Shown in pieces: positions 656-29,369 of a stretch of 32,000 nt of DNA. Position 1 is the first letter of the stretch. Each line of letters opens with the position of its first letter. Origin of the DNA: Aquifex aeolicus VF5 (GTDB taxonomy: Bacteria > Aquificota > Aquificia > Aquificales > Aquificaceae); contig NC_000918.1 in NCBI RefSeq assembly GCF_000008625.1, positions 600,001 to 632,000 of the forward strand, in the 5' to 3' direction. The notes beneath the pieces are model-generated. The model saw only the letters and a list, made by a program, of their open reading frames with translations, searched no databases and was not told the origin of the DNA. The translations under genes and the position numbers were made by a program.

Positions 656-946
656 ATGTTCAAGTACATAATCTTAATAACATTTTTAATGGTTTTCAAC
701 CTGGTCTATTCAATCTACTCCCTGAGGGTGTGGAAGGAGTACACTGAAAGTTTCTACTTCTACTCACACCTCGTAAAGGAAAACATGTTGCTTATGAAGG
801 AAGTTCACGAGAGGATTAATTACAGAAAACTCCTGAAGTACGCAAGAAAGCACGGCTTTAAGGATGTAAGTCCGAAAGACGTCAAAGGAATTTTAGAGAT
901 ATATCTAACCAGCGAGAAGAGTGAACAATCGCGCCAGAAGAAATGA
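656..946 (+). CDS. Small single-pass membrane protein, FtsL/FtsB-like (putative cell-division protein)
   Basis: Taken from the internal ATG at 656 of the 599..946 ORF: MFKYIILITFLMVFNLVYSIYSL (TM helix), then a helical stretch and YRKLLKYARKHGFKDVSPKDV. That last block resembles the C-terminal I-x-x-x-A-R-x-x-L-G-x-x-x-P motif of FtsL/FtsB/DivIC proteins. The last 65 nt overlap the convergent nadC 3' end. Weak call based on pattern only. Confidence 0.4.
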   Translation: MFKYIILITFLMVFNLVYSIYSLRVWKEYTESFYFYSHLVKENMLLMKEVHERINYRKLLKYARKHGFKDVSPKDVKGILEIYLTSEKSEQSRQKK

Positions 947-1706
947 AGTCCACACCTTCAACCGCGTAATCCAGAACGTTATCAAGGGTTATGTTTCCCG
1001 AGACCTCTACCAGCGCCCTTCCCTTTATAATTTCCACAGCTCTTTTTACTTCTTCCGGTGTGAAGTTGTCGAGCATAATCACGTCAACACCTGCACTCAG
1101 TGCTTCTTCTACCTCTTCCAAGTTTTCAACTTCCACCTCAATTTTGTAAACAGGGGAAATCCTTTCCCTTACCCTCTTTACAGCCTCCTTTATGCTTCCG
1201 GCCACCCTCTTGTGGTTGTCTTTGATGAGAACCATGTCGTAGAGTCCAAACCTGTGGTTCGTCCCGCCTCCTATCCGCACTGCGTACTTTTCAAAGTAAC
1301 GAAAACCCGGCGTTGTCTTCCGAGTGTCTAAAATTTTCACGTTAGTCCCTTTAAGTTTTTCTACAAACTTTCTCGCCGTTGTGGCGATTCCGGAAAGTCT
1401 CTGAAGGATATTCAGGGAAAGTCTCTCACCGATGAGGAGGCTCTTTGCATCTCCCTCAAGAATTGCAAGTATTTCTCCTTTTTCGAAAACCTCGCCTTCC
1501 CTTTTTTTGAACTCAACACTTACTCCGCCGAGAATTTCAAAAACCATCTCAACGAAGGGAGCACCTGCAAGTACGCCTTCTTCCTTTGTCTTTATTACCG
1601 CCTTTGCTTTTTCACCTCTGTAAATTCCTTCTGTAGTTATGTCGCCTGTTCCTATGTCTTCGAGTAAAAACTCTTTTAGTTTTTCCTTTACGAGGATTTC
1701 GTTCAT
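882..1706 (-). CDS. nadC: Nicotinate-nucleotide pyrophosphorylase (quinolinate phosphoribosyltransferase)
   Basis: 274 aa. N-terminal LLEDIGTGDITT, central TRKTTPGFR, NHRFGLYDMVLIKDNH and MLDN motifs, and a C-terminal SSGAIVHS...LDISL, all typical of NadC. Confidence 0.92.
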   Translation of the reverse strand: MNEILVKEKLKEFLLEDIGTGDITTEGIYRGEKAKAVIKTKEEGVLAGAPFVEMVFEILGGVSVEFKKREGEVFEKGEILAILEGDAKSLLIGERLSLNILQRLSGIATTARKFVEKLKGTNVKILDTRKTTPGFRYFEKYAVRIGGGTNHRFGLYDMVLIKDNHKRVAGSIKEAVKRVRERISPVYKIEVEVENLEEVEEALSAGVDVIMLDNFTPEEVKRAVEIIKGRALVEVSGNITLDNVLDYAVEGVDFISSGAIVHSSRWLDISLKFL

Positions 1707-1713
1707 GGTTGGG

Positions 1714-1801
1714 TGGTGGGGGTGGAGGGAGTCGAACCCTCACGGGCTTTTCGCCCAGGGGATTTTAAGTCCCCCGCGTCTGCCAATTCCGCCACACCCC
1801 C
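1714..1801 (-). tRNA. tRNA-Leu (anticodon UAA), class II with long variable arm, CCA encoded
   Basis: The reverse complement is GGGGGTGTGGCGGAATTGGCAGACGCGGGGGACTTAAAATCCCCTGGGCGAAAAGCCCGTGAGGGTTCGACTCCCTCCACCCCCACCA. Acceptor stem GGGGGTG/CACCCCC. Anticodon stem GGGGA/TCCCC with loop CTTAAAA. Variable arm GGGC-GAAAA-GCCC. T arm GAGGG-TTCGACT-CCCTC. 3' ACCA. Confidence 0.93.
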
Positions 1802-1816
1802 TAACTAAAGAAATAT

Positions 1817-1845
1817 ATTATACTTATAGAAAGAACTTTTCTCAA
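1817..1845 (-). promoter_or_regulatory. Near-consensus sigma70-type promoter (TTGAGA-17 nt-TATAAT) driving tRNA-Leu (and probably nadC)
   Basis: The minus strand reads TTGAGA aaagttctttctataag TATAAT, with 15 nt between the -10 and the mature tRNA 5' end. The predicted leader is about 8-9 nt. Confidence 0.5.
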
Positions 1846-1851
1846 GAAATC

Positions 1852-3198
1852 ATGAGAGAACCCATCGTAGCTATAGCCACTCCTTACGGTGAGAGTGCAA
1901 TAGGTATAGTTCGCCTATCGGGAAAGGGCGTACTGGACTTAGTTAAGAAGTTCTTCAAAACGAAGAGGGAAATAAAGCCGAGGTACGCCCACTTCGGCGT
2001 TCTCTACGACGATAAAGGCGAAGAACTCGACGAAGGAGTCCTTATATACTACAAAGCTCCTCACTCCTATACGGGCGAGGATATGGTAGAACTCAACCTC
2101 CACGGAAATCCGAGGATTCTCAAAAGAGCTCTGGAACTTTTTGTAAACGCCGGAGCACGGCTCGCAGAACCCGGAGAGTTTACCAAGAGAGCCTTTTTAA
2201 ACGGAAAACTGGATTTAACTCAGGCGGAAGCCGTTGCGGAGTTAATATCCGCAAAAACGGAACTTGCGAGGAAGGTAGCCCTGAAACAACTTCACGGAGA
2301 GCTTTCAAAACACATAAGACCTTTGAGAGAAACGCTTCTGGAACTCCTCGCCTACGTAGAGGCTGACATAGAGTTCGCGGAGGAAGACATACCGACCCTA
2401 ACAAAGGAACAGGTAATCCAGATGGTGGACAAAGTAATAGAGGGAATAAACGAACTCCTGAAAACCGCAAAAACCGGAAAGTTCATAAGGGAAGGTGTAA
2501 AATTAGCTATCGTTGGAAGACCCAACGTAGGAAAGTCCTCCCTCTTTAACGCACTCCTCAAAGAGGAGAGGGCTATAGTCACGGACATAGCTGGAACCAC
2601 GAGGGACTTTATAGAGGAAACTCTCCAGATAAAGGGAGTGCCCGTAAGACTCGTAGACACCGCGGGAATAAGGGAAACTAAAGACCTGGTTGAGAGAATA
2701 GGAGTAGAAAGGAGCAAACAAAAGGTTAAGGAAGCGGATCTTATTCTCTTCGTAATAGACGCAAGTCAGGAAATTACCGAGGAGGATTTAAGGATATACG
2801 AGGAGATAAAGGAAAAGGATCACATCGTAGTGGCTAACAAGGTGGACTTAGGGATTAGGGCAAATCTCGAAAAGTTTAAAGGAGAAAAAATTGTAAAGGT
2901 GAGTGCTTTAAAGGGAACTGGACTGGAGGAGCTTTCCGAGGAAATTCTGAAAAAAGTCGGTGCAAATCTCGAAGAAAGTGTTAATATATACATATCCGTT
3001 AGACACGAAACTCTTCTCAAAAAGGCAAAAGAAGTTTTAGAAAGGTTTAAGGAGGAGTTCAGGGAAAAAGATATAAGTCCTGAAATCGCCATGCTTGACC
3101 TGAGGGAAGCTTCGGACTACTTGGGAGAAATTTTGGGAGAGATTACCACGGAGGATCTTTTAGGAAAAATCTTTTCCACCTTCTGCATAGGAAAGTAA
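1852..3198 (+). CDS. mnmE: tRNA modification GTPase MnmE (TrmE/ThdF)
   Basis: Uses the internal ATG at 1852 (MREPIVAIATPYGESAIGIVRLSG...), giving 448 aa. G1 motif GRPNVGKSS, DTAGIRET, NKVD and the C-terminal FCIGK motif are present. The upstream 71 codons of the 519-aa ORF read antisense through tRNA-Leu and are rejected. Confidence 0.93.
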   Translation: MREPIVAIATPYGESAIGIVRLSGKGVLDLVKKFFKTKREIKPRYAHFGVLYDDKGEELDEGVLIYYKAPHSYTGEDMVELNLHGNPRILKRALELFVNAGARLAEPGEFTKRAFLNGKLDLTQAEAVAELISAKTELARKVALKQLHGELSKHIRPLRETLLELLAYVEADIEFAEEDIPTLTKEQVIQMVDKVIEGINELLKTAKTGKFIREGVKLAIVGRPNVGKSSLFNALLKEERAIVTDIAGTTRDFIEETLQIKGVPVRLVDTAGIRETKDLVERIGVERSKQKVKEADLILFVIDASQEITEEDLRIYEEIKEKDHIVVANKVDLGIRANLEKFKGEKIVKVSALKGTGLEELSEEILKKVGANLEESVNIYISVRHETLLKKAKEVLERFKEEFREKDISPEIAMLDLREASDYLGEILGEITTEDLLGKIFSTFCIGK

Positions 3199-6110: not shown

Positions 6111-6899
6111 TTACCCTCCTAGTAACCGGCTCAAAAGCCCTTTCTTTTCTCCGTAGCGCTTCAGGGGAATGCTTTCACCCATTAACCTGCGGGCTGTGTC
6201 TATTATGGCTTGAGATGCGGGAAACTTTTCATCAAGTACTATAGGCTCACCCCTATTAGTAAAGTCCACGAGTTTCGGTTCTTCGGGAATTATACCGATA
6301 ATTTCGGCTTTAAGTATATCTACTATATCCTCAACTGATAGCATAGCCCCCCTTTTCACCATTTCCCACTTTATCCTGTTTACGATAACTTTGTAATTTC
6401 TCTTGTCCATGCTCTCCAGAAGCCCTATTACCCTGTCCGCGTCCCTTATAGAGGAAACCTCTGGATTAACAACTATTAGAGCTTTGTCCGCAGGGGATAC
6501 CGCTATCTGAAAACCTTTTTCTATACCAGCAGGAGAATCTACGAGGATGTAATCGTAATTTCCTGAATTTTTAATCTCTTCTACAGTTTTGTTCCACTTT
6601 TCAATGTCTATTACGTCCTTATTTGCCCTCTGGTTTGCGGGAAGTAGCCATAGGGAAAGTCCCCTTTTGTCCTTCACGAGTGCTTTTTCATAAGGCACCC
6701 TTCCTTCAAGCACGTCAAGAATGTCGTATACTATCCTGTTTTCAAGACCTAGAATCATATCCAGGTTTCTCAACCCGATGTCTGCGTCGATTAAGAGGAC
6801 TTTTTTACCAAGCTTTGCGAGTGCGGTACCTATGTTTGCGGTAAGTGTAGTTTTTCCTACGCCTCCCTTTCCGGAGGTTATAACAATAACTTCAGCCAT
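6111..6899 (-). CDS. minD: Septum site-determining ATPase MinD
   Basis: 262 aa. Deviant Walker A SGKGGVGKTT, DADIGLRNLD, a ParA/MinD fold pattern and a C-terminal amphipathic tail. Confidence 0.95.
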   Translation of the reverse strand: MAEVIVITSGKGGVGKTTLTANIGTALAKLGKKVLLIDADIGLRNLDMILGLENRIVYDILDVLEGRVPYEKALVKDKRGLSLWLLPANQRANKDVIDIEKWNKTVEEIKNSGNYDYILVDSPAGIEKGFQIAVSPADKALIVVNPEVSSIRDADRVIGLLESMDKRNYKVIVNRIKWEMVKRGAMLSVEDIVDILKAEIIGIIPEEPKLVDFTNRGEPIVLDEKFPASQAIIDTARRLMGESIPLKRYGEKKGLLSRLLGG

Positions 6900-7483
6900 C
6901 TTTCCGCTCCTTCTATTGGTTCTAATACTATATCTTCGCCCTCTATTTTTGCAACTTCCGGGTATCCCGGTGAGTTTCTATCCGCCTCCGACATTATAGC
7001 CTTCTTTTTCCCTATCTGGAGGAGTTGAGGCTCCATCTTGAGAGCCACTATGACCGCCGAGTGATCTCCTATCAAACCGGCCTTTGCAACACCCCTCAGC
7101 TTTCCCATAACTATGATGTTCCCACCAGCGAGGACCTCGGCATCTTTGTTCACATCTCCGAGTATTAAAATGTCTCCTCTGTGTTCTATCCTCTGACCTG
7201 CCCTTAACGTTCTCTCTATTATGAGAAGTCTGCTTTCTTCCCTTTTCTCCTTTCCTTCTTTCTTACCTTCTATAAAACCGCGTGAGAACTCCTTCAGGAT
7301 TTCTTCTACTTTTTTTCTCTCTTCCGGCTTTAATACTTCCGGGTTTTCAAGGATTATCAAGCTTCCTTTGAATATATTGTGGGAGAGTTTTTCTTTCAAT
7401 TCTTTAAGTAATTTATCTATGTTTCCTTTTTCCTTTATCTTTATCTGGATTACGGGAAGTGTTTTTCCCTTTATCTCTATCAC
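6878..7483 (-). CDS. minC: Septum site-determining protein MinC
   Basis: 201 aa upstream of minD, overlapping it by 22 nt. N-terminal IEIKGKTLPVIQIKI resembles E. coli MinC IELKGSSFTL. The C-terminal repeat region (GDILILGDVNKDAEVLAGGNIIVMGKLRG) is typical of the MinC beta-helix. GTG start. Confidence 0.85.
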   Translation of the reverse strand: MIEIKGKTLPVIQIKIKEKGNIDKLLKELKEKLSHNIFKGSLIILENPEVLKPEERKKVEEILKEFSRGFIEGKKEGKEKREESRLLIIERTLRAGQRIEHRGDILILGDVNKDAEVLAGGNIIVMGKLRGVAKAGLIGDHSAVIVALKMEPQLLQIGKKKAIMSEADRNSPGYPEVAKIEGEDIVLEPIEGAERWLKLLL

Positions 7484-7506
7484 CTTAACTATTATTATAA
7501 GGAAGT

Positions 7507-8085
7507 ATGGATGTGTTCGTTCTCGACACGAGCGTTTTCACAAACCCGGAGATATACAGAACCTTTGAAGAGGATCAGAGAGGAGCTATGGAAACCTTTA
7601 TACACCTTGCCCTGAATTCCAGAGCTGAGTTTTACATGCCCACTTCCGTTTACACGGAAATGAGAAAAATAATGGATGTGGGGGAACTCTGGGCGGAATT
7701 TGAGATGGTGGTAAAGATACGCTCTCCCAGGAGGTTTCAATTAACTGTTCCCGCGGATTTTCTCTATGAGTTCATAGAAGAACTCAGATATAGGATTAAT
7801 AAAGGTTTGAGGATAGCGGAAGAACACACGAGGGAAGCGAGCGGTTGTGAAGACGTCGGGAAATTAATAGCTAGGCTCAGGGAGAAGTACAGGGAAGCCC
7901 TCAGGCAGGGAATACTCGACAGTAAAGAGGACGTGGATGTGCTGCTCCTTGCCTACGAACTGGACGGGGTTCTCGTTTCGGCGGATGAAGGCCTCAGAAC
8001 ATGGGCGGACAAGATAGGTATAAAACTCATAGACCCTAAGAATTTCAAAAACATTTTAGAGAGCTTGGTAAGACACAGGTTTTAA
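7507..8085 (+). CDS. PIN-like metallonuclease; HARP-type protein-only minimal RNase P (recognised as Aq_880-like)
   Basis: 192 aa. N-terminal [12 protein letters not shown] (beta1 plus catalytic Asp) and C-terminal [22 protein letters not shown] (PIN acidic residues). There is no antitoxin-sized partner ORF. From memory, the sequence matches the Aquifex aeolicus RNA-free RNase P protein. Confidence 0.8.
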
Positions 8086-9968
8086 ATGAGACGCCCGCCC
8101 TTCAGGGCGTCCCTCACCGCCTTTTCTATACCTTCAGCGTCTATACCGACGAGGTTTCTGAGTATGTCCTGCTTTCCGTGTTCTATGAACCTGTCCGGCA
8201 CACCTAAGTTTATTACCCTCTTCATTATTCCTTCCCTTGCGAAAAACTCCAGAACTCCGCTTCCAAAGCCTCCAACTACCGTATTGTCTTCAACGGTTAT
8301 GAATGTGTCGTACCTATTTGCGAGGTCTCTGAGCATTTTCTCGTCCATCGGCTTTACGAACCTCGCGTTGACTACACCTACCCTTATCCCTTCCTTGTAG
8401 AGTTTTTCCGCGGCTCTAAGGGCTTGGTATACGGGGTATCCCACCGCAAGTATAACGCAGTCCTCACCTTCCAGAAGCTCCTCCCAAGTTCCTATTTCTA
8501 TCTTTTTAAAACCTTCGGTAGGAACTCCGTAAGCCGCACCCCTCGGATACCTCAGGGCGAAAGGCTTTCCGCTGTATATACCAGTGTAAAGGAGGTCCCT
8601 GAGCTCCTGTTCATCTTTTGGAGCGCAAACTACCATATTGGGAACGCATCTCAGGTAAGAGAGGTCAAAAACTCCGTGGTGGGTGGGACCGTCGTCTCCG
8701 ACAAGTCCCGCCCTGTCTATTGCGAAGGTAACGGGCAGGTTCTGGAGTGCTACGTCGTGGATTACCTGGTCGTAAGCCCTCTGGAGGAAAGTGGAGTAGT
8801 ATGCTGCGACTGGTCTTAGTCCTTCTGCGGCGAGTCCTGCAGCAAAGGTGCAAGCGTGCTGTTCAGCAATTCCTACGTCAAAGAACCTGTCAGGGAACCT
8901 CTTTGCGAACTCAACGAGTCCCGAACCTTCCCTCATGGCGGGAGTAATTGCCACGATTTTCTCGTCCCTTTCAGCCAGTTCCACGAGTGCCTTTCCAAAG
9001 ACCGAGGTCCAGGTGGGAGGAGAGCTTTTTTTAATGATTTCTCCGGACTCAACCTTGTAGGGCGCAACTCCGTGCCACTTTACGGGATTTTCCTCCGCAG
9101 GCTTGTAGCCCTTTCCCTTCTTCGTGTAAACGTGGAGAAGGACGGGTCCCTTTATATCTTTCACGTTGTTTAATGTATCCTCAAGGGCCTTTATGTCGTG
9201 TCCGTCTATGGGACCTATGTAATTAAAACCGAGTTCCTCGAAAATAACTCCGGGTGATATTAGACCCTTGAGGAACTCCTCCGTGAGCTTCATTATCCTG
9301 AGAGGAGTCTCCCCGAAGTGCTGTAAGAAATTCTTAATCTTTTGTCTCGTTTCTTGAACGAAATGCCCGCTTATTATCCTGTTCAGGTATGTGGATATCG
9401 CTCCTACATTCGGAGATATAGACATCTCGTTGTCGTTCAGTATCACGATAAACCTGTCCGGTCTTATGTGTCCCGCGTTGTTTAGAGCCTCGTAAGCCAT
9501 ACCCGCCGTGAGTGCACCGTCCCCTATTACCGCTATAACGTAATCCTCTTTTTCTCCTTTCAGGTCCTTTCCTATCCTGAAGCCCAGGGCTGCAGAAATA
9601 GAGGTAGAGCTGTGTCCTGCTCCGAAGGCGTCGTATATGCTCTCCTCTCTTCTCAAAAATCCCGAAATGCCCTTATACTGTCTCAAAGTAGGGAATTGCT
9701 CTTTTCTGTCTGTGAGTATCTTCCATGGGTATCCCTGGTGTCCTATGTCCCAGACTATTACGTCCTCAGGCGGGTTGAAAACCCTCAGGAGTGCTATCGT
9801 TAATTCAACAACACCAAGGCTCGGACCTACATGTCCTCCGTTCTTTGAAGTTACATTTATGATGTAATCCCTTACCTCTTGAGCGAGCTTCTGGAGCGTT
9901 TCATAATCGTAATTCTTTATATCAAAAGGCCCTTTATAGTCCTTCAAGATCTCGTACTTCTCAAGCAT
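8082..9968 (-). CDS. dxs: 1-deoxy-D-xylulose-5-phosphate synthase
   Basis: 628 aa. [14 protein letters not shown], the TPP-binding motif [18 protein letters not shown]...LNDN, and transketolase-like pyrimidine and C-terminal domains. Confidence 0.96.
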
Positions 9969-9989: not shown

Positions 9990-10409
9990 TCAGAAGAACA
10001 TCAATCTGAGAAGCCATCCGAAGATAACTACGCTCAATACAAGCCCGAGTCCCACAACTCCCACAAGTACTCCTATCTTCCAGTTCAGATCCTTTTGCTT
10101 TATCCATATAAGGGGGAAGGTTGCGAGTGTATAGAGCATCAGGAGTATCCCGAGCCACTTGTGGGGGAACAGGAATATGAAGGTTACCTTTTGTTGAACG
10201 TAAGGGTTTGTGGCCTGAGAGAGTCCGGTTATCACCGCAAGAACTACAAACACAGCGGAAATTGCGTGGTTAAAGAGTCCGTGGTGCAGGAAAAATAGAA
10301 CGTGTCTCCTAAAGCCGTAGTAAACTACGTAGCTCAAGTAAGTCACAAAAATGAGTCCCACGAGGAAGTAATTTACTAGTGGGTGAAGCTTTCCCATACT
10401 TTTAATCAT
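9990..10409 (-). CDS. Hypothetical integral membrane protein, about 4 TM helices, His-rich
   Basis: 139 aa with four hydrophobic segments. Histidines sit at the helix ends (RRHVLFFLHHGLFNHA, FPHKW). Its ATG overlaps the reverse gyrase TGA (ATGA). No family assignment is possible by eye. Confidence 0.6.
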   Translation of the reverse strand: MIKSMGKLHPLVNYFLVGLIFVTYLSYVVYYGFRRHVLFFLHHGLFNHAISAVFVVLAVITGLSQATNPYVQQKVTFIFLFPHKWLGILLMLYTLATFPLIWIKQKDLNWKIGVLVGVVGLGLVLSVVIFGWLLRLMFF

Positions 10410-13400
10410 ACATTCGCTTTTTCAAACTCGTTCACCTTTTTGTAAAGCTCGTCCAGAACCTGGAGGTAGTCTTCCTTCCCTTCTTCTACCTTATCCATTA
10501 ACTCTTCAAGTTTTCTAGTAAACTCTTCCGAGACGAAAGGCATTATCTTTTCTCTGCTTTTGAGGAATTCGTAAACCTGCTTTCCGAGCTTCGTAGGAAT
10601 TAAGAAGCCGTGTCTTTCTATAACGTAGCCCCTTTCAAGGAGTTTGGAAACTATCGTGGCGTAAGTGGATGGTCTGCCTATTCCCCTTCTCTTCATCTCT
10701 TCAACTAAGGAACCTTGAGTATATAGGTAAGCCATTGGAACGCTCTTTAGTTCTTTTTTGTCTTCCACATACACGCTCCCTTTCAGGTCCGGCTGGAGTT
10801 CTAATGGGTACACTTTGTTAAAACCTTCTTCAAGAATTTCGGTTGTGAGTATGAGTTCTTGTTCCCTGCCGAGGGCTTTTACTTTCACTTTCTTGGTTTT
10901 TACCTTAACGGGCTTCATCTGAGATGCCATGAACCTCTTGAAGATTAACTCGTAAAGAAGTAGATGTTCTCTTGTGAGGTTCTGGAGCTGTCCCGCGAGC
11001 ATCATACTCCTTAGGTCCTCAACGTCTAAAGGCTTTGTGGGTCTTATACACTCGTGAGCACCGCCCTCTCCCCAAACCCTCGGATAGAAAAGTTCCTTTC
11101 CGAGTTCCTCGCTTATCCACTCTTTCGCCACTCCTATCCCGACGTCCGAAACGCGCGTGGAGTCTGTCCTGTGGTAAGTTATAAGACCGTACTCAAAGAG
11201 TTCCTGGGCGAGTTGCATCAATTTCGGCACGGATATCCTGTAGCGGTCCGAGGCTTCTTTAAGCATGGTGTCGGTGGTAAAGGGCGGAGGTGGATTTTTC
11301 AGTTCTTCTCTTTCTTCAAGAACTTCAACGTCAATCTCTTTCAGGTTTTCGTAAAACTCCTTTGCTTCCTTTTTGTCCTGAAACTCAAAACCGAGCCTAA
11401 GCCACCTTCCGTTTTCTTTAAAGGTTATCTGAACTACATGCTTTTTCTTTCTGTAAAGTTTTTCCCTCTCTATAATCCAGCCGAGAACGGGTATCTGAAC
11501 TCTACCGCCAGAAAGCCAGTGTTTATCAAAAGCTTGCTGTACTATCCTTGAAACTTCAAAGCCAACCCACCTGTCCGCTATTCTCCTAACGAGCTGAGCC
11601 TTTACGAGGTTTTCGTTAAAGTCCCTCGGGTTTTCCACGGCGTGTTTTATAGCCTTTCTCGTCACCTCGTGAAACTCAATCCTTTCCACGTTGGGGATGT
11701 AGGGACTTAGCAGTGCTCCGAGGTCCCAGCCTATCTTTTCCCCTTCCGTGTCTGGGTCCGTTCCGATGAGCACCGTGTCCACCTCCTGAGCGAGTTCCCT
11801 CAGTCCCTTTACTATGTTCTCCTTTCCTTCTATAACTTCGTAAATGGGAACGTATTCACCGTTTTTCGCTATTACGCCGTGGAATTCCTTGTCCTTCACA
11901 AGGTCAAAAACGTGTCCGAGTGATGCCGTAATCATTATGTAAAGGTCCCCAACCATTACCTCAAGAACGTCTATGCCCCCTATCTTTCTGCCCATGGGTT
12001 TTCCGAAGAAGTTTGCTATGGTTCTGGCTTTGTTAGGGCTTTCTACCACTACCAGTACGGGCTTGACGTGCTCCTTTTGCTCCGCTTTTACCTTTCCTTC
12101 CAGGATTTCCCTTACCTTCTTCCTGTCCTCGTCTATTTCCCTTAGGACTTCTTTCAGGTCCACTTCTTCAATTTTCTTGAAGTTTATGTCCTGATTGAAC
12201 CACCTTACCTTCTTTTCTAAGTTCTTGAAAGCCCTTCTGTCGTCAACGAGAACGTGGCTCAGACCTTTCGTAAGTCCACCAGCGTACATTCTTGAAGTTC
12301 TTCCGCTCGCCTGAAGGTATCCCGTCACGTCCGCAACGACGAGTTCAAACCCTTCCTCTCCGAGTCTGAGAGTTAACTCTTCAGAGTTTTTTATCTTTTC
12401 AACGATATCTTCCCTCAGCAAGAACTCCTGAACTTCTTTTCTCAGGTTCTCAATCCTATCTTTTAAATCAGGCCTCTCCTCAACGAAGTCATCGCTCAGG
12501 AAGGAATACCTCCTTAGCCTCTGTATCCACGTGTCAACCTTCTTTACTTCACTCTTCAGTTTTTCGTCCTTGAGGATTATAGGTCTCAGAGAGAGGAGTG
12601 CCCAGAGGAGGTGGGAGACAGAGGTTTCTACTTTGAGGGGAACTCTTATTTTCGGAACGCCGTAGAAGATTGCGTACCTGACCACGTGGGGAAGGTCAAT
12701 CCCGCGAGCCAAGGGGTTTTTAAAGGAAGAGATACCTATCGCTACCTGTGCTTCTCCCTTCTCAAAGAGTTTTAGATCCTCTTCGTAGGTGACCGCCTTA
12801 ACTCCGTGGCTTTCTAAGAACTTTTTAACCTCTTCAACAGCTTCCCTTCCGTAATCAGATGAGACAAAGACGAGTCCTCCCTTTCCGAATTCTTTAACTC
12901 TCTTTAGGAGTGTTTCCTTTAAGTTTTGGGTTTCCTCGTAGGTTTCCACTATGTTTCTGAGAAGGACGCTCGGCTTTCCGACTTCAAATCCCAGTAGTTC
13001 CCTAAAAAGCTTTATCCTGTTTGAACGGGGATTTCCGGTGGCGGAAGAAACCGCAAGAACTCCCTTTTTCTTTTTGGCTATCTCCCTGAGTTCCTCGCTC
13101 CTTTTCTTTATCTCCTCCCAGTCCTCTTCACTCTTATTTGGTTTTTCTTTCAGTCTAATGAGTTCAAAAGCCTTGTGTATGTCTTCCTCGGAAAAACCGA
13201 GGAGGTAGAGAACCTTGTCTACGTTCTTTGCCGTCTTCAGGAAACTGTCCACGTCGTCTACGAAGATGAAGGAAAAGTCTTTGGGGAGTATCTCGTAATT
13301 TTTGTAAAGGAACATAGAAGTTGTGATGAGGATGTCAAAGTCTCCCTTCTGAATTCTTTCCTTTAACTCTTTTTTCTTCTTTTCCGAGAGTTTGCCCCAG

Positions 13401-13846
13401 ACTATTAATCTGTCCTCGTCAACGCCGAAGGTTTTTATCCTCTCTGATACCTGCTCAACGAGGAGTTGTGTGGGAAGTATTATGTAGGACTTTTTCCCCT
13501 GCTTTGCGAGGTAAGATGCCATGGAAAGCCCGAAAGTGGTTTTTCCCACTCCCGTGGGGGCGAGCATGGCAAAGCTCCTTCCGAGGAATACCTTCCTAGC
13601 CCATGACTTTTGCAAACTCCACGGAGAAGTCCCCAATATCTCTTTAAAGAAATCTTCCCAGTCTTTCAGCTCGGATAAGAGTTCGCAGAACTCTTTAAAG
13701 CTCCCATTCTCCAGTTTCTGACAGACTTCCTCTCTATTTACTTCTTCGGGAAGACACTTTTCACAGGGAAGACCTTTTAGCAGTCTTTCGGCGGATATCT
13801 CGCCACCGCAGTTCGGACACAGAGTATCAAAAATAGCCTTAATCAT
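10406..13846 (-). CDS. rgy: Reverse gyrase (helicase-like domain fused to type IA topoisomerase)
   Basis: 1146 aa. N-terminal Zn finger CPNCGG...CEKC, Walker A APTGVGKT, DEAD-like VDDVD and SAT. Then TOPRIM (VVVESPNKARTI, GTDPDTEGE) and the topo IA catalytic Tyr context (ITYHRTDS). Confidence 0.97.
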   Translation of the reverse strand: MIKAIFDTLCPNCGGEISAERLLKGLPCEKCLPEEVNREEVCQKLENGSFKEFCELLSELKDWEDFFKEILGTSPWSLQKSWARKVFLGRSFAMLAPTGVGKTTFGLSMASYLAKQGKKSYIILPTQLLVEQVSERIKTFGVDEDRLIVWGKLSEKKKKELKERIQKGDFDILITTSMFLYKNYEILPKDFSFIFVDDVDSFLKTAKNVDKVLYLLGFSEEDIHKAFELIRLKEKPNKSEEDWEEIKKRSEELREIAKKKKGVLAVSSATGNPRSNRIKLFRELLGFEVGKPSVLLRNIVETYEETQNLKETLLKRVKEFGKGGLVFVSSDYGREAVEEVKKFLESHGVKAVTYEEDLKLFEKGEAQVAIGISSFKNPLARGIDLPHVVRYAIFYGVPKIRVPLKVETSVSHLLWALLSLRPIILKDEKLKSEVKKVDTWIQRLRRYSFLSDDFVEERPDLKDRIENLRKEVQEFLLREDIVEKIKNSEELTLRLGEEGFELVVADVTGYLQASGRTSRMYAGGLTKGLSHVLVDDRRAFKNLEKKVRWFNQDINFKKIEEVDLKEVLREIDEDRKKVREILEGKVKAEQKEHVKPVLVVVESPNKARTIANFFGKPMGRKIGGIDVLEVMVGDLYIMITASLGHVFDLVKDKEFHGVIAKNGEYVPIYEVIEGKENIVKGLRELAQEVDTVLIGTDPDTEGEKIGWDLGALLSPYIPNVERIEFHEVTRKAIKHAVENPRDFNENLVKAQLVRRIADRWVGFEVSRIVQQAFDKHWLSGGRVQIPVLGWIIEREKLYRKKKHVVQITFKENGRWLRLGFEFQDKKEAKEFYENLKEIDVEVLEEREELKNPPPPFTTDTMLKEASDRYRISVPKLMQLAQELFEYGLITYHRTDSTRVSDVGIGVAKEWISEELGKELFYPRVWGEGGAHECIRPTKPLDVEDLRSMMLAGQLQNLTREHLLLYELIFKRFMASQMKPVKVKTKKVKVKALGREQELILTTEILEEGFNKVYPLELQPDLKGSVYVEDKKELKSVPMAYLYTQGSLVEEMKRRGIGRPSTYATIVSKLLERGYVIERHGFLIPTKLGKQVYEFLKSREKIMPFVSEEFTRKLEELMDKVEEGKEDYLQVLDELYKKVNEFEKANV

Positions 13847-27073: not shown

Positions 27074-27882
27074 TCTTTTTAAAGAATTCCAAAAAGGCAT
27101 TTGAGACTTTTAAAAGAGTTGAAAGAGTTTTAAAAGATTTAAACCTCAGCTACAAAAAGTTTATAAACAGGAAGGAACTTTTTAAAGTTTTAAAACCTAA
27201 GGATTATGAACTCTTTCTCGTTATAGGGGGAGATGGTACATTCTTGAGTGCCGCTCGCATCGCTTCGCGTTTCGGTGTTCCCCTTGTTGGTGTAAACGAA
27301 GGGAGGTTCGGTTTTCTCACAGAAATAAAGAAGGAAGAAATAAAAAAAGTTCTGCCGCTGGTACTGGAAGGAAGGGCGAAACTTCAGGAGAGGTTGATGA
27401 TAGACGTTTACCTGAGGAGCAGAAACAGGTTGAGGTATCTCGGGAATTACCTGAACGACGCCGTGATTTCAAAGAGCAGTATAGCGAGGATAATAAGGAC
27501 TAAGGTGTTTATAAATGGGGAGGAAGTTCTGGAGGTCTTCGGAGACGGTGTTATCCTTTCCACACCTACGGGTTCAACCGCCTACGCACTTTCCGCGGGA
27601 GGACCGATTGTTTACCCCGAATCTCAGAACTTACTCTTCGTTCCCATATGCCCCCATACGCTTTCAAACAGACCCCTCGTTCTTCCCTCTAAATTTGAAG
27701 TCAAGTTCAAAGTGGTTTCGGAAAATATGGAAGCCTTCTTGACCTTGGACGGTCAGGAGGGATTTCATCTAAAGAAGGGGGACGAGGTAATCGTTAAGCG
27801 TTCAAGGTACGTTTGCAGGATGTACTCCCATCCCCGTAAGTCCTTTTTCGGGATACTGAAAGAGAAGTTAAGATGGGGTTGA
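27058..27882 (+). CDS. nadK: NAD kinase
   Basis: 274 aa. GGDGTFL, NDAV and STPTGSTAYALSAGGPIV motifs. It overlaps gmhA by 16 nt. Confidence 0.93.
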   Translation: MRKVLVFLKNSKKAFETFKRVERVLKDLNLSYKKFINRKELFKVLKPKDYELFLVIGGDGTFLSAARIASRFGVPLVGVNEGRFGFLTEIKKEEIKKVLPLVLEGRAKLQERLMIDVYLRSRNRLRYLGNYLNDAVISKSSIARIIRTKVFINGEEVLEVFGDGVILSTPTGSTAYALSAGGPIVYPESQNLLFVPICPHTLSNRPLVLPSKFEVKFKVVSENMEAFLTLDGQEGFHLKKGDEVIVKRSRYVCRMYSHPRKSFFGILKEKLRWG

Positions 27883-28575
27883 TAGCTTTTTAGACTTCCT
27901 GAGGTCGGAACCCTTTATAACGAGCAACTCGTTCATCTCGTAAATTTTTGAAACTACGTTTTCTCCGAGTCTGCTTGCAAGATCCGCACTTATCCTCACG
28001 CTACTCTCTTCTTCCCTCTGGAGTGAGTAATTCGTGGTTATTATCGTGCTCTTAAGGTTGTTATACCTGTAAGTGATTATGTAAGAGATGAGTTCCCTCT
28101 GCCAGTCACTGAGCCTCTCAGAACCGAGGTCGTCGAGAACCAAAACCGGTGAGTTTAAGACAGTTTTTAAAAACTTTGTATCCTTTCCCTCGTCCATTAA
28201 GTGTTTTAACCTGAATATTAGATCCTTCGTATCGAAGAAGTATCCTCTGATTCCCTTCTTCTCATAAATCGCTTTTAATGTTGCAACCGCAAGGTGAGTT
28301 TTGCCGACTCCAGGAGATCCTACAAAGGTAAGCCCTTTCCCTTCCTCGGGATTGAAGTTGTGGACGAAGACCCTTATCGTCAAAAGTGCCCTGTTCTGGG
28401 ATACGTTCTTGGGGTGGTAAGTGTCTAAGTTGGCGTTCCAGTACCTCTTTGGGATGTTTAGTTCCCTGTTTACATCCCTTTTCTTGAACCTGCATTCGCA
28501 GAGCCTTACCTTGTTGTCTTCGGTCTTTACGAATCCCGTCCCCTGACAAATACTGCAGGTAGCGGTATCTTGCAT
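27868..28575 (-). CDS. dnaC: DnaC/DnaI-type AAA+ replicative helicase loader
   Basis: N-terminal Zn-ribbon-like CSICQGTG...CEC, Walker A GSPGVGKTHLAVA, Walker B VLVLDDLG, and TTN (sensor I). Start taken at ATG 28575 (MQDTATCSIC, 235 aa). The ORF track extends to a TTG at 28611, which would overlap the SPFH stop. Confidence 0.88.
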   Translation of the reverse strand: MQDTATCSICQGTGFVKTEDNKVRLCECRFKKRDVNRELNIPKRYWNANLDTYHPKNVSQNRALLTIRVFVHNFNPEEGKGLTFVGSPGVGKTHLAVATLKAIYEKKGIRGYFFDTKDLIFRLKHLMDEGKDTKFLKTVLNSPVLVLDDLGSERLSDWQRELISYIITYRYNNLKSTIITTNYSLQREEESSVRISADLASRLGENVVSKIYEMNELLVIKGSDLRKSKKLSTPS

Positions 28576-28607
28576 ACTTTTAAATATCTGGTTTCGTAAG
28601 TTATTTT

Positions 28608-29369
28608 TCAATCGTTACTTTTCCTCCCTTTCATAAACTCAACGAGTTCCAAGGGAAAGGGGAATATAACGGTCTTCGCGTTGTGTAGTCCTATAGTGTG
28701 TAGAGTTTCCAAGTACCTCAGTTGTATGGCTATCGGTTCCTGAGCTAGAATTCTCGCAGCTTCAAGGAGTTTTTGTGCAGCCTGGTATTCCGCCTCAGCG
28801 CTTATTATCTTAGCCCTCCTTTCCCTTTCCGCCTCAGCCTGCCTTGCAAGAGCCTTTCTCAGTTCTTCTGGAAGGTCTATTTTCTTGAGTTCAACCGCTA
28901 TAACCTTCACACCCCATGGATCCGTTTGCCTGTCTATAATTTCTTGAAGTTTCATATTTATCTTTTCCCTTTGAGACAGGAGTTCGTCCAGCTCCGCCTC
29001 ACCGCAGACACTCCTCAAAGTCGTCTGGGCGATCTGGGAAGTTGCGTAAAAGTAGTCTTCCACCTCGACAATAGCTTTTACAGGGTCAACAACCCTGAAG
29101 TAAACGACCGCGTCCACCTGAACGGTTACGTTGTCCTTCGTTATAACGTCCTGAGTGGGAACGTCCAGAGTTACCGTCCTCAGGGAAACCCTCACTATTC
29201 TATCTATAATCGGTATAACTATTATGAGACCGGGACCTTTAGCCCCTATTACCCTTCCGAGACGAAACACAACTGCCCTTTCGTACTCGGGAATTACTTT
29301 GATTGCTGAAGCCAAAAACAGCAGGACTAAGATCGCTATGAATATCGGCGGAAGAGGCAAAAATTCCAT
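28608..29369 (-). CDS. SPFH/band-7 (stomatin/prohibitin-like) membrane protein
   Basis: 253 aa. N-terminal TM helix, then [26 protein letters not shown]...[22 protein letters not shown] and a coiled-coil [11 protein letters not shown]. Confidence 0.92.

Follow-up and report, generated by a model that had tools for sequence, protein, structure and literature searches.

The Aq_880 (HARP) gene for a protein-only RNase P and its surroundings in a 32-kb stretch of Aquifex DNA

In Aquifex aeolicus both rnpA and rnpB are absent (PMC8266387, PMC12153264). The protein Aq880 came to light when the RNase P activity of this organism was purified biochemically and analysed by mass spectrometry (PMC8266387, PMC12153264), and it is reported to be the only RNase P activity that A. 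aeolicus has (PMC12439589, PMC12153264). Cleavage of pre-tRNA 5' leaders by this protein alone has been published in vitro, and Aq880 rescues E. coli cells depleted of their own RNase P RNA in rnpB-knockdown complementation experiments (PMC12439589). Knowledge of this enzyme type, termed HARP, has accumulated over several years, from the discovery in 2017 through structures in 2021, 2022, 2023 and 2025 to the in-vivo complementation in 2025.

The active form of Aq880 is a homo-dodecamer, built as a hexamer of dimers, as seen by cryo-EM in PDB entries 7F3E and 8KD9 (PMC8405995, PMC12217051). The former is the apo dodecamer, while the latter is AaHARP (the Aq_880 protein) bound to pre-tRNA, with five pre-tRNAs per dodecamer and an arrangement described as a molecular ruler (PMC12217051). 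Further solved HARPs, which are orthologues from other taxa, comprise Hth1307 of Hydrogenobacter thermophilus (8SSF/8SSG, 8KDA), Hhal2243 of Halorhodospira halophila (7OG5) and the entries 7E8J and 7E8K/7E8O. Hth1307 and Hhal2243 are likewise dodecameric and share 67% and 53% identity, respectively, with Aq880 (PMC8405995). Several of the hosts of these orthologues keep an RNA-based RNase P, and there HARP is not the housekeeping enzyme (PMC8266387, PMC10941002).

Two other groups of proteins invite comparison. Eukaryotic PRORP (e.g. Arabidopsis PRORP1 and human MRPP3) is, like HARP, a protein-only RNase P whose active site is of the PIN-like metallonuclease type. Of the four HARP aspartates, three superpose on D399, D475 and D493 of AtPRORP1 (PMC8266387), and both enzymes measure the distance from the tRNA elbow to the cleavage site (PMC8405995, PMC12217051). 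PRORP, however, is a single chain of ~60 kDa in which an NYN-type nuclease is fused to PPR repeats and to a domain that binds zinc, whereas HARP possesses no PPR/Zn module and recognizes its substrate through homo-oligomerisation. The two arose independently (PMC10941002). The VapC toxins belong to the same broad PIN-like group and have an acidic Mg2+-binding site as well. Unlike VapC, HARP has no antitoxin, carries an inserted helical domain, assembles into a dodecamer and acts as a site-specific housekeeping endonuclease that is not growth-arresting.

Here we analyse a gene of this family within a 32-kb stretch of DNA (32,000 nucleotides in total, hereafter the window). The present analysis provides its identity and family, the conservation of its residues, its genomic surroundings and the state of positions -1 and 73 in the tRNAs; for catalysis, oligomeric state, the pre-tRNA complex and the role as sole RNase P we rely on publications that deal with the identical protein.

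Identity and family of the open reading frame

The open reading frame (ORF) under study occupies positions 7507-8085 of the plus strand and runs from ATG to TAA, encoding 192 amino acids plus the stop codon, according to both the ORF list and our own translation. The computed mass of the product is 22.5 kDa and its pI 5.2. Directly upstream of the ATG, within the gap that separates it from minC, a purine-rich AAGGAAG (7499-7505, plus strand) can be read from the sequence, which resembles a Shine-Dalgarno motif and presumably functions as one.

Comparison with all PDB chain sequences revealed that the translation is identical at 192/192 residues (E 1.2e-125) to entry 7F3E, "RNA-free ribonuclease P", which is Aq880 of A. 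aeolicus according to the depositing paper (PMC8405995). With 8KD9 the only difference is C113S, an engineered change in that structure entry, from which the last two residues are absent. The next matches also bear the name RNA-free ribonuclease P, namely 8SSF and 8KDA (E about 1e-84), 7OG5 (E 6e-65), and 7E8K and 7E8J (E about 1e-49). Neither a frameshift nor an alternative start that would break the identity with Aq880 was seen, and a reverse gyrase gene within the window fits a hyperthermophile. Because the translation is identical to 7F3E, and 7F3E is described as Aq880, we are nearly certain that the ORF is the Aq_880 gene, encoding a HARP-type protein-only RNase P, of A. aeolicus or of a strain with an identical protein. 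Indeed, the catalytic aspartate tetrad, the elbow-binding cluster, the length and the mass are the same as in Aq_880/AaHARP, and at the protein level there is no difference.

The family searches are in agreement with this identification. The Pfam model PIN_5 (PF08745, cut-off 27 bits) covers residues 4-188 with 234.1 bits (E 1.3e-69), 318.5 bits were obtained with the NCBIfam equivalog NF003344 (curated cut-off 241), and TIGR03875, whose title "RNA ligase partner protein" is an older name of the HARP family, reaches 242.6 bits against 95.3. The protein thus belongs to the HARP family both by full-length PIN_5/HARP models above their curated thresholds and by identity to an experimentally characterised member. 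An earlier note on this DNA had placed a 192-aa ORF at these positions, had matched it to Aq_880/HARP and had proposed a profile-HMM search as a check; the ORF is present, its identity to 7F3E is complete, and all three models are passed. With the solved HARPs of other taxa the window protein shares the PIN_5 fold family, an alignment over the full length, the conserved active site and the basic helices. By contrast, no PPR, NYN or PRORP family was found in a Pfam scan of the window protein, which consists of a single 192-aa PIN_5 domain, and membership in the eukaryotic PRORP group, with its NYN, PPR and Zn-binding domains, was accordingly rejected.

Catalytic and tRNA-binding residues

For the study of residue conservation the window protein was aligned with 48 full-length relatives from Aquificota and Gammaproteobacteria. 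Two motifs had been singled out beforehand as sources of acidic residues, and both are found in the translation: VFVLDTSVF at residues 3-11, which includes D7, and a C-terminal motif ([22 protein letters not shown]) at residues 142-163, which includes D142, D144, D153 and D160. The catalytic aspartates D7, D138, D142 and D160 (Aq880 numbering) are all present and are invariant in 49/49 sequences, so that the alignment bears out the conservation that the earlier note had expected. All four are essential for the activity of Aq880 (PMC8405995).

On the plus strand, Asp7 is encoded at 7525-7527; it is equivalent to Asp399 of AtPRORP1 and has been proposed as the general base (PMC8405995, PMC12217051). 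The codons of Asp138 (7918-7920) and Asp142 (7930-7932) delimit the stretch 7918-7932 and belong to an invariant D-S-x-E-D-V-D motif, while catalytic Asp160, named as such in PMC8405995, is encoded at 7984-7986. The fourth catalytic aspartate of Aq880 appears as "D161" in one publication (PMC8266387) and as Asp160 in another (PMC8405995). Since residue 160 is the invariant aspartate and residue 161 is a glutamate (7984-7989), D160 is the correct number.

The basic cluster that characterises the family is located in an inserted protruding (spike) helix domain, encoded at about 7786-7905 of the plus strand (the domain edges are approximate). Its residues are all present, with R94, R96, K99 and R102 on helix alpha5 and R125, R129 and R133 on helix alpha6. 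Among the 49 aligned sequences R94, R96, R102, R125 and R133 are invariant; position 99 varies between K, R and H, and position 129 between R and K. The spike helix domain forms the dimer interface and the binding site for the tRNA elbow (PMC8405995), and binding of the elbow by the R94...R133 cluster was first proposed and later seen (PMC8405995, PMC12217051). This insertion also accounts for the size of the protein: the length that the 192-aa chain has in addition to a VapC, and which had led the earlier note to call it too long for such a toxin, is the inserted protruding-helix domain for dimerisation and tRNA-elbow binding.

The following mode of action has been described for the identical protein (PMC8405995, PMC12217051). 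Each 22.5-kDa chain combines a PIN_5 metallonuclease domain with the inserted two-helix spike domain. The basic helices of one dimer hold the elbow of the tRNA, formed by the T and D loops, and the Mg2+ site of a neighbouring dimer (Asp7, Asp138, Asp142 and Asp160), placed at a fixed distance, cuts 5' of nucleotide +1, where the acceptor stem begins. Such a molecular ruler is convergent with those of both RNA-based RNase P and eukaryotic PRORP.

Gene neighbourhood and distribution of relatives

HARP is flanked by minC (6878-7483, minus strand; TIGR01222, 195 bits), which is divergent from it across a gap of 23 bp, and by dxs (8082-9968, minus strand; TIGR00204, 847 bits), which is convergent with it, the stop codons overlapping. 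The back-to-back and tail-to-tail arrangement described previously is therefore correct. The overlap lies at 8082-8085, where TTTAA is read on both strands, and it leaves neither strand any room between the genes for an intrinsic terminator. Beyond minC follow minD and minE and then, on the other strand, prfA; beyond dxs come a gene for a small membrane protein and then that for reverse gyrase (10406-13846, minus strand; TIGR01054, 1660 bits).

This arrangement bears on the question whether the ORF could instead encode a VapC-like PIN toxin of a toxin-antitoxin module, which would degrade tRNA, rRNA or mRNA and arrest growth. Within the PIN superfamily, HARPs are assigned to a structural group termed VapC-like (PMC10941002, PMC12153264), and the PDB search returned a marginal match to 'putative toxin VapC6' (2LCQ; E 0.062 over 38 residues). 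Such a module would comprise an adjacent antitoxin gene and a VapC-type PIN protein of ~130-150 aa. No plausible co-oriented ORF of antitoxin size, however, occurs upstream or downstream of HARP, where the neighbours are the divergent minC and the convergent dxs. The sole plus-strand ORF on the upstream side (7221-7568) was discarded as a partner gene: it runs antisense through minC, is of low complexity, rich in Ser and Phe, and has no Pfam match, which upholds the previous statement that no small antitoxin ORF precedes the gene. Moreover, no VapC-type PIN family exceeds its threshold (PIN_4 and PIN-TPR remain below theirs, against 234 bits for PIN_5), the helical insertion of ~50 residues is missing from VapC, and the identical protein has been demonstrated to cut pre-tRNA site-specifically at the 5' side and to rescue E. 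coli depleted of RNase P. A toxin is thus effectively refuted and hardly conceivable for this locus.

A second alternative is raised by the match to TIGR03875. As an RNA ligase partner, the protein would act together with a Pab1020-type ligase in cleavage and ligation or circularisation of RNA, and RNase P activity would be secondary, as it may be in archaea. The circularising RNA ligase is over-represented in genomes that contain HARP and is sometimes encoded adjacent to it (PMC12153264), and archaeal HARP knockouts show no phenotype (PMC10941002). In the present case, however, the idea is unsupported, because the annotation of ORFs of at least 110 aa across the 32-kb window includes no RNA ligase gene. 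The upstream neighbours of HARP in the seven loci of the genus Aquifex (L001-L007) are prfA-minD-minC, with dxs on the other side in five of them, and A. aeolicus is reported to have no RNase P activity other than Aq880 (PMC12439589, PMC12153264). We regard a primary role as ligase partner as very improbable, and retain the identification as a tRNA 5'-processing RNase P.

A scan with one genome per GTDB species yielded 56 loci related to the window gene, with identities of 51-88%. The closest relatives all belong to Aquifex or other Aquificota, the top locus being 88% identical, and the remaining taxa are Chromatiaceae and other Gammaproteobacteria, Thioalkalivibrio and a single 'Tectomicrobia' MAG. 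The order prfA-minD-minC beside HARP is kept in the seven Aquifex-genus MAG loci, in five of which dxs follows HARP and in four of which reverse gyrase is likewise retained; the remaining 49 of the 56 loci lack this order. For this reason the neighbourhood carries no functional signal, and a functional linkage of HARP with minCDE or with dxs was rejected: the gene order is confined to the genus Aquifex, and there is no association at the level of an operon.

Some further observations were made on the relatives and on the remainder of the window. Relatives with 52-64% identity (L022, L024 and L030-L051) are common in MAGs of Chromatiaceae and other Gammaproteobacteria and in Thioalkalivibrio, with one in the 'Tectomicrobia' MAG; they indicate a bacterial spread somewhat broader than the few genera given in the text of a 2025 survey. 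Several genes for tRNA modification are present in the window, i.e. mnmE, queA, a ThiI/MnmA-like PP-loop ATPase and a TadA-like deaminase domain protein (1639-3198, 17965-18969, 20558-21313 and 23166-23621), but these are scattered among housekeeping genes and have no operon link to HARP. An IstB_IS21-like AAA+ ATPase of 247 aa (27868-28611, minus strand; PF01695, 76 bits) has no adjacent gene for an IstA transposase; instead of belonging to an insertion sequence, it may act as a helicase loader of the DnaC type.

tRNA genes as likely substrates, and the place of HARP among RNase P enzymes

The window harbours two tRNA genes on the minus strand, both of which were recovered by ARAGORN and Rfam where the earlier note had located them. 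The gene for tRNA-Leu(UAA) lies at 1714-1801, with A(-1) at 1802, A73 and an encoded CCA; that for tRNA-Arg(CCG) lies at 19913/19914-19987, with A(-1) at 19988, A73 and a CCA that is not encoded. Apart from tRNA, no Rfam family reaches its gathering score within the 32-kb window, RNase P RNA included. This agrees with the lack of rnpB stated in the earlier note, which for the genome as a whole is known from the literature.

In both tRNAs A(-1) faces the A73 discriminator, and the acceptor stem therefore cannot extend. These features match the published pattern of A. aeolicus, where A(-1) occurs in 38/44 pre-tRNAs and a G-C pair -1/73 is found in none except tRNA-His and tRNA-Sec; the pattern has been interpreted as co-evolution of the substrates with HARP (PMC12439589). 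With regard to their -1/73 positions, tRNA-Leu and tRNA-Arg are likely natural substrates of HARP. Upstream of tRNA-Leu a promoter-like TTGAGA-17-TATAAT (1845-1817, minus strand) matches the consensus at 11/12 positions, from which a pre-tRNA-Leu leader of ~9 nt would result. A weaker promoter-like site upstream of tRNA-Arg (20070-20043) would give a leader of ~50 nt in pre-tRNA-Arg. Going by these consensus matches, both tRNAs would be transcribed with a 5' leader.

Each of the two tRNA genes is followed immediately, on its own strand, by a gene that codes for a protein. The nadC gene (882-1706, minus strand; TIGR00078, 378 bits) has its ATG 7 nt (CCCAACC) past the end of tRNA-Leu at 1714. 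This gap provides no room for a Shine-Dalgarno sequence, and tRNA-Leu and nadC probably form a tRNA-mRNA co-transcript that gives a nearly leaderless nadC mRNA. Similarly, a polyprenyl diphosphate synthase gene (18982-19896, minus strand) has its ATG 16-17 nt past tRNA-Arg, depending on the predicted 3' end of the tRNA, and the gap includes the Shine-Dalgarno-like motif AAGGTG. On the other side of tRNA-Leu, the listed mnmE ORF (1639-3198, plus strand) is aligned by its family models only from residue 73, so that its real start is to be placed near 1851-1855 and there is no true overlap with tRNA-Leu; the two genes diverge from an intergenic region of ~50 bp.

Because both tRNAs precede coding genes and a recent report describes cleavage of 3' trailers by AaHARP, at a distance of at least 13 nt from the tRNA on its downstream side (PMC12217051), the idea arises that Aq880 also helps to separate tRNA-mRNA co-transcripts. 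We consider this unlikely. If such trailer cleavage did occur in vivo, the 5' ends of the mRNAs that follow could be defined or removed by HARP, and tRNA maturation would be coupled to the expression of nadC and the polyprenyl synthase gene.

The HARP gene of this window thus encodes the type member of a family of enzymes that has been characterised well before. It adds nothing new, since the properties of the enzyme were worked out on this very protein from 2017 to 2025. Its significance is that of the family: no RNase P known is smaller than HARP, which demonstrates that a protein of 23 kDa, made specific by oligomerisation, can take the place of a ribozyme both essential and ancient.
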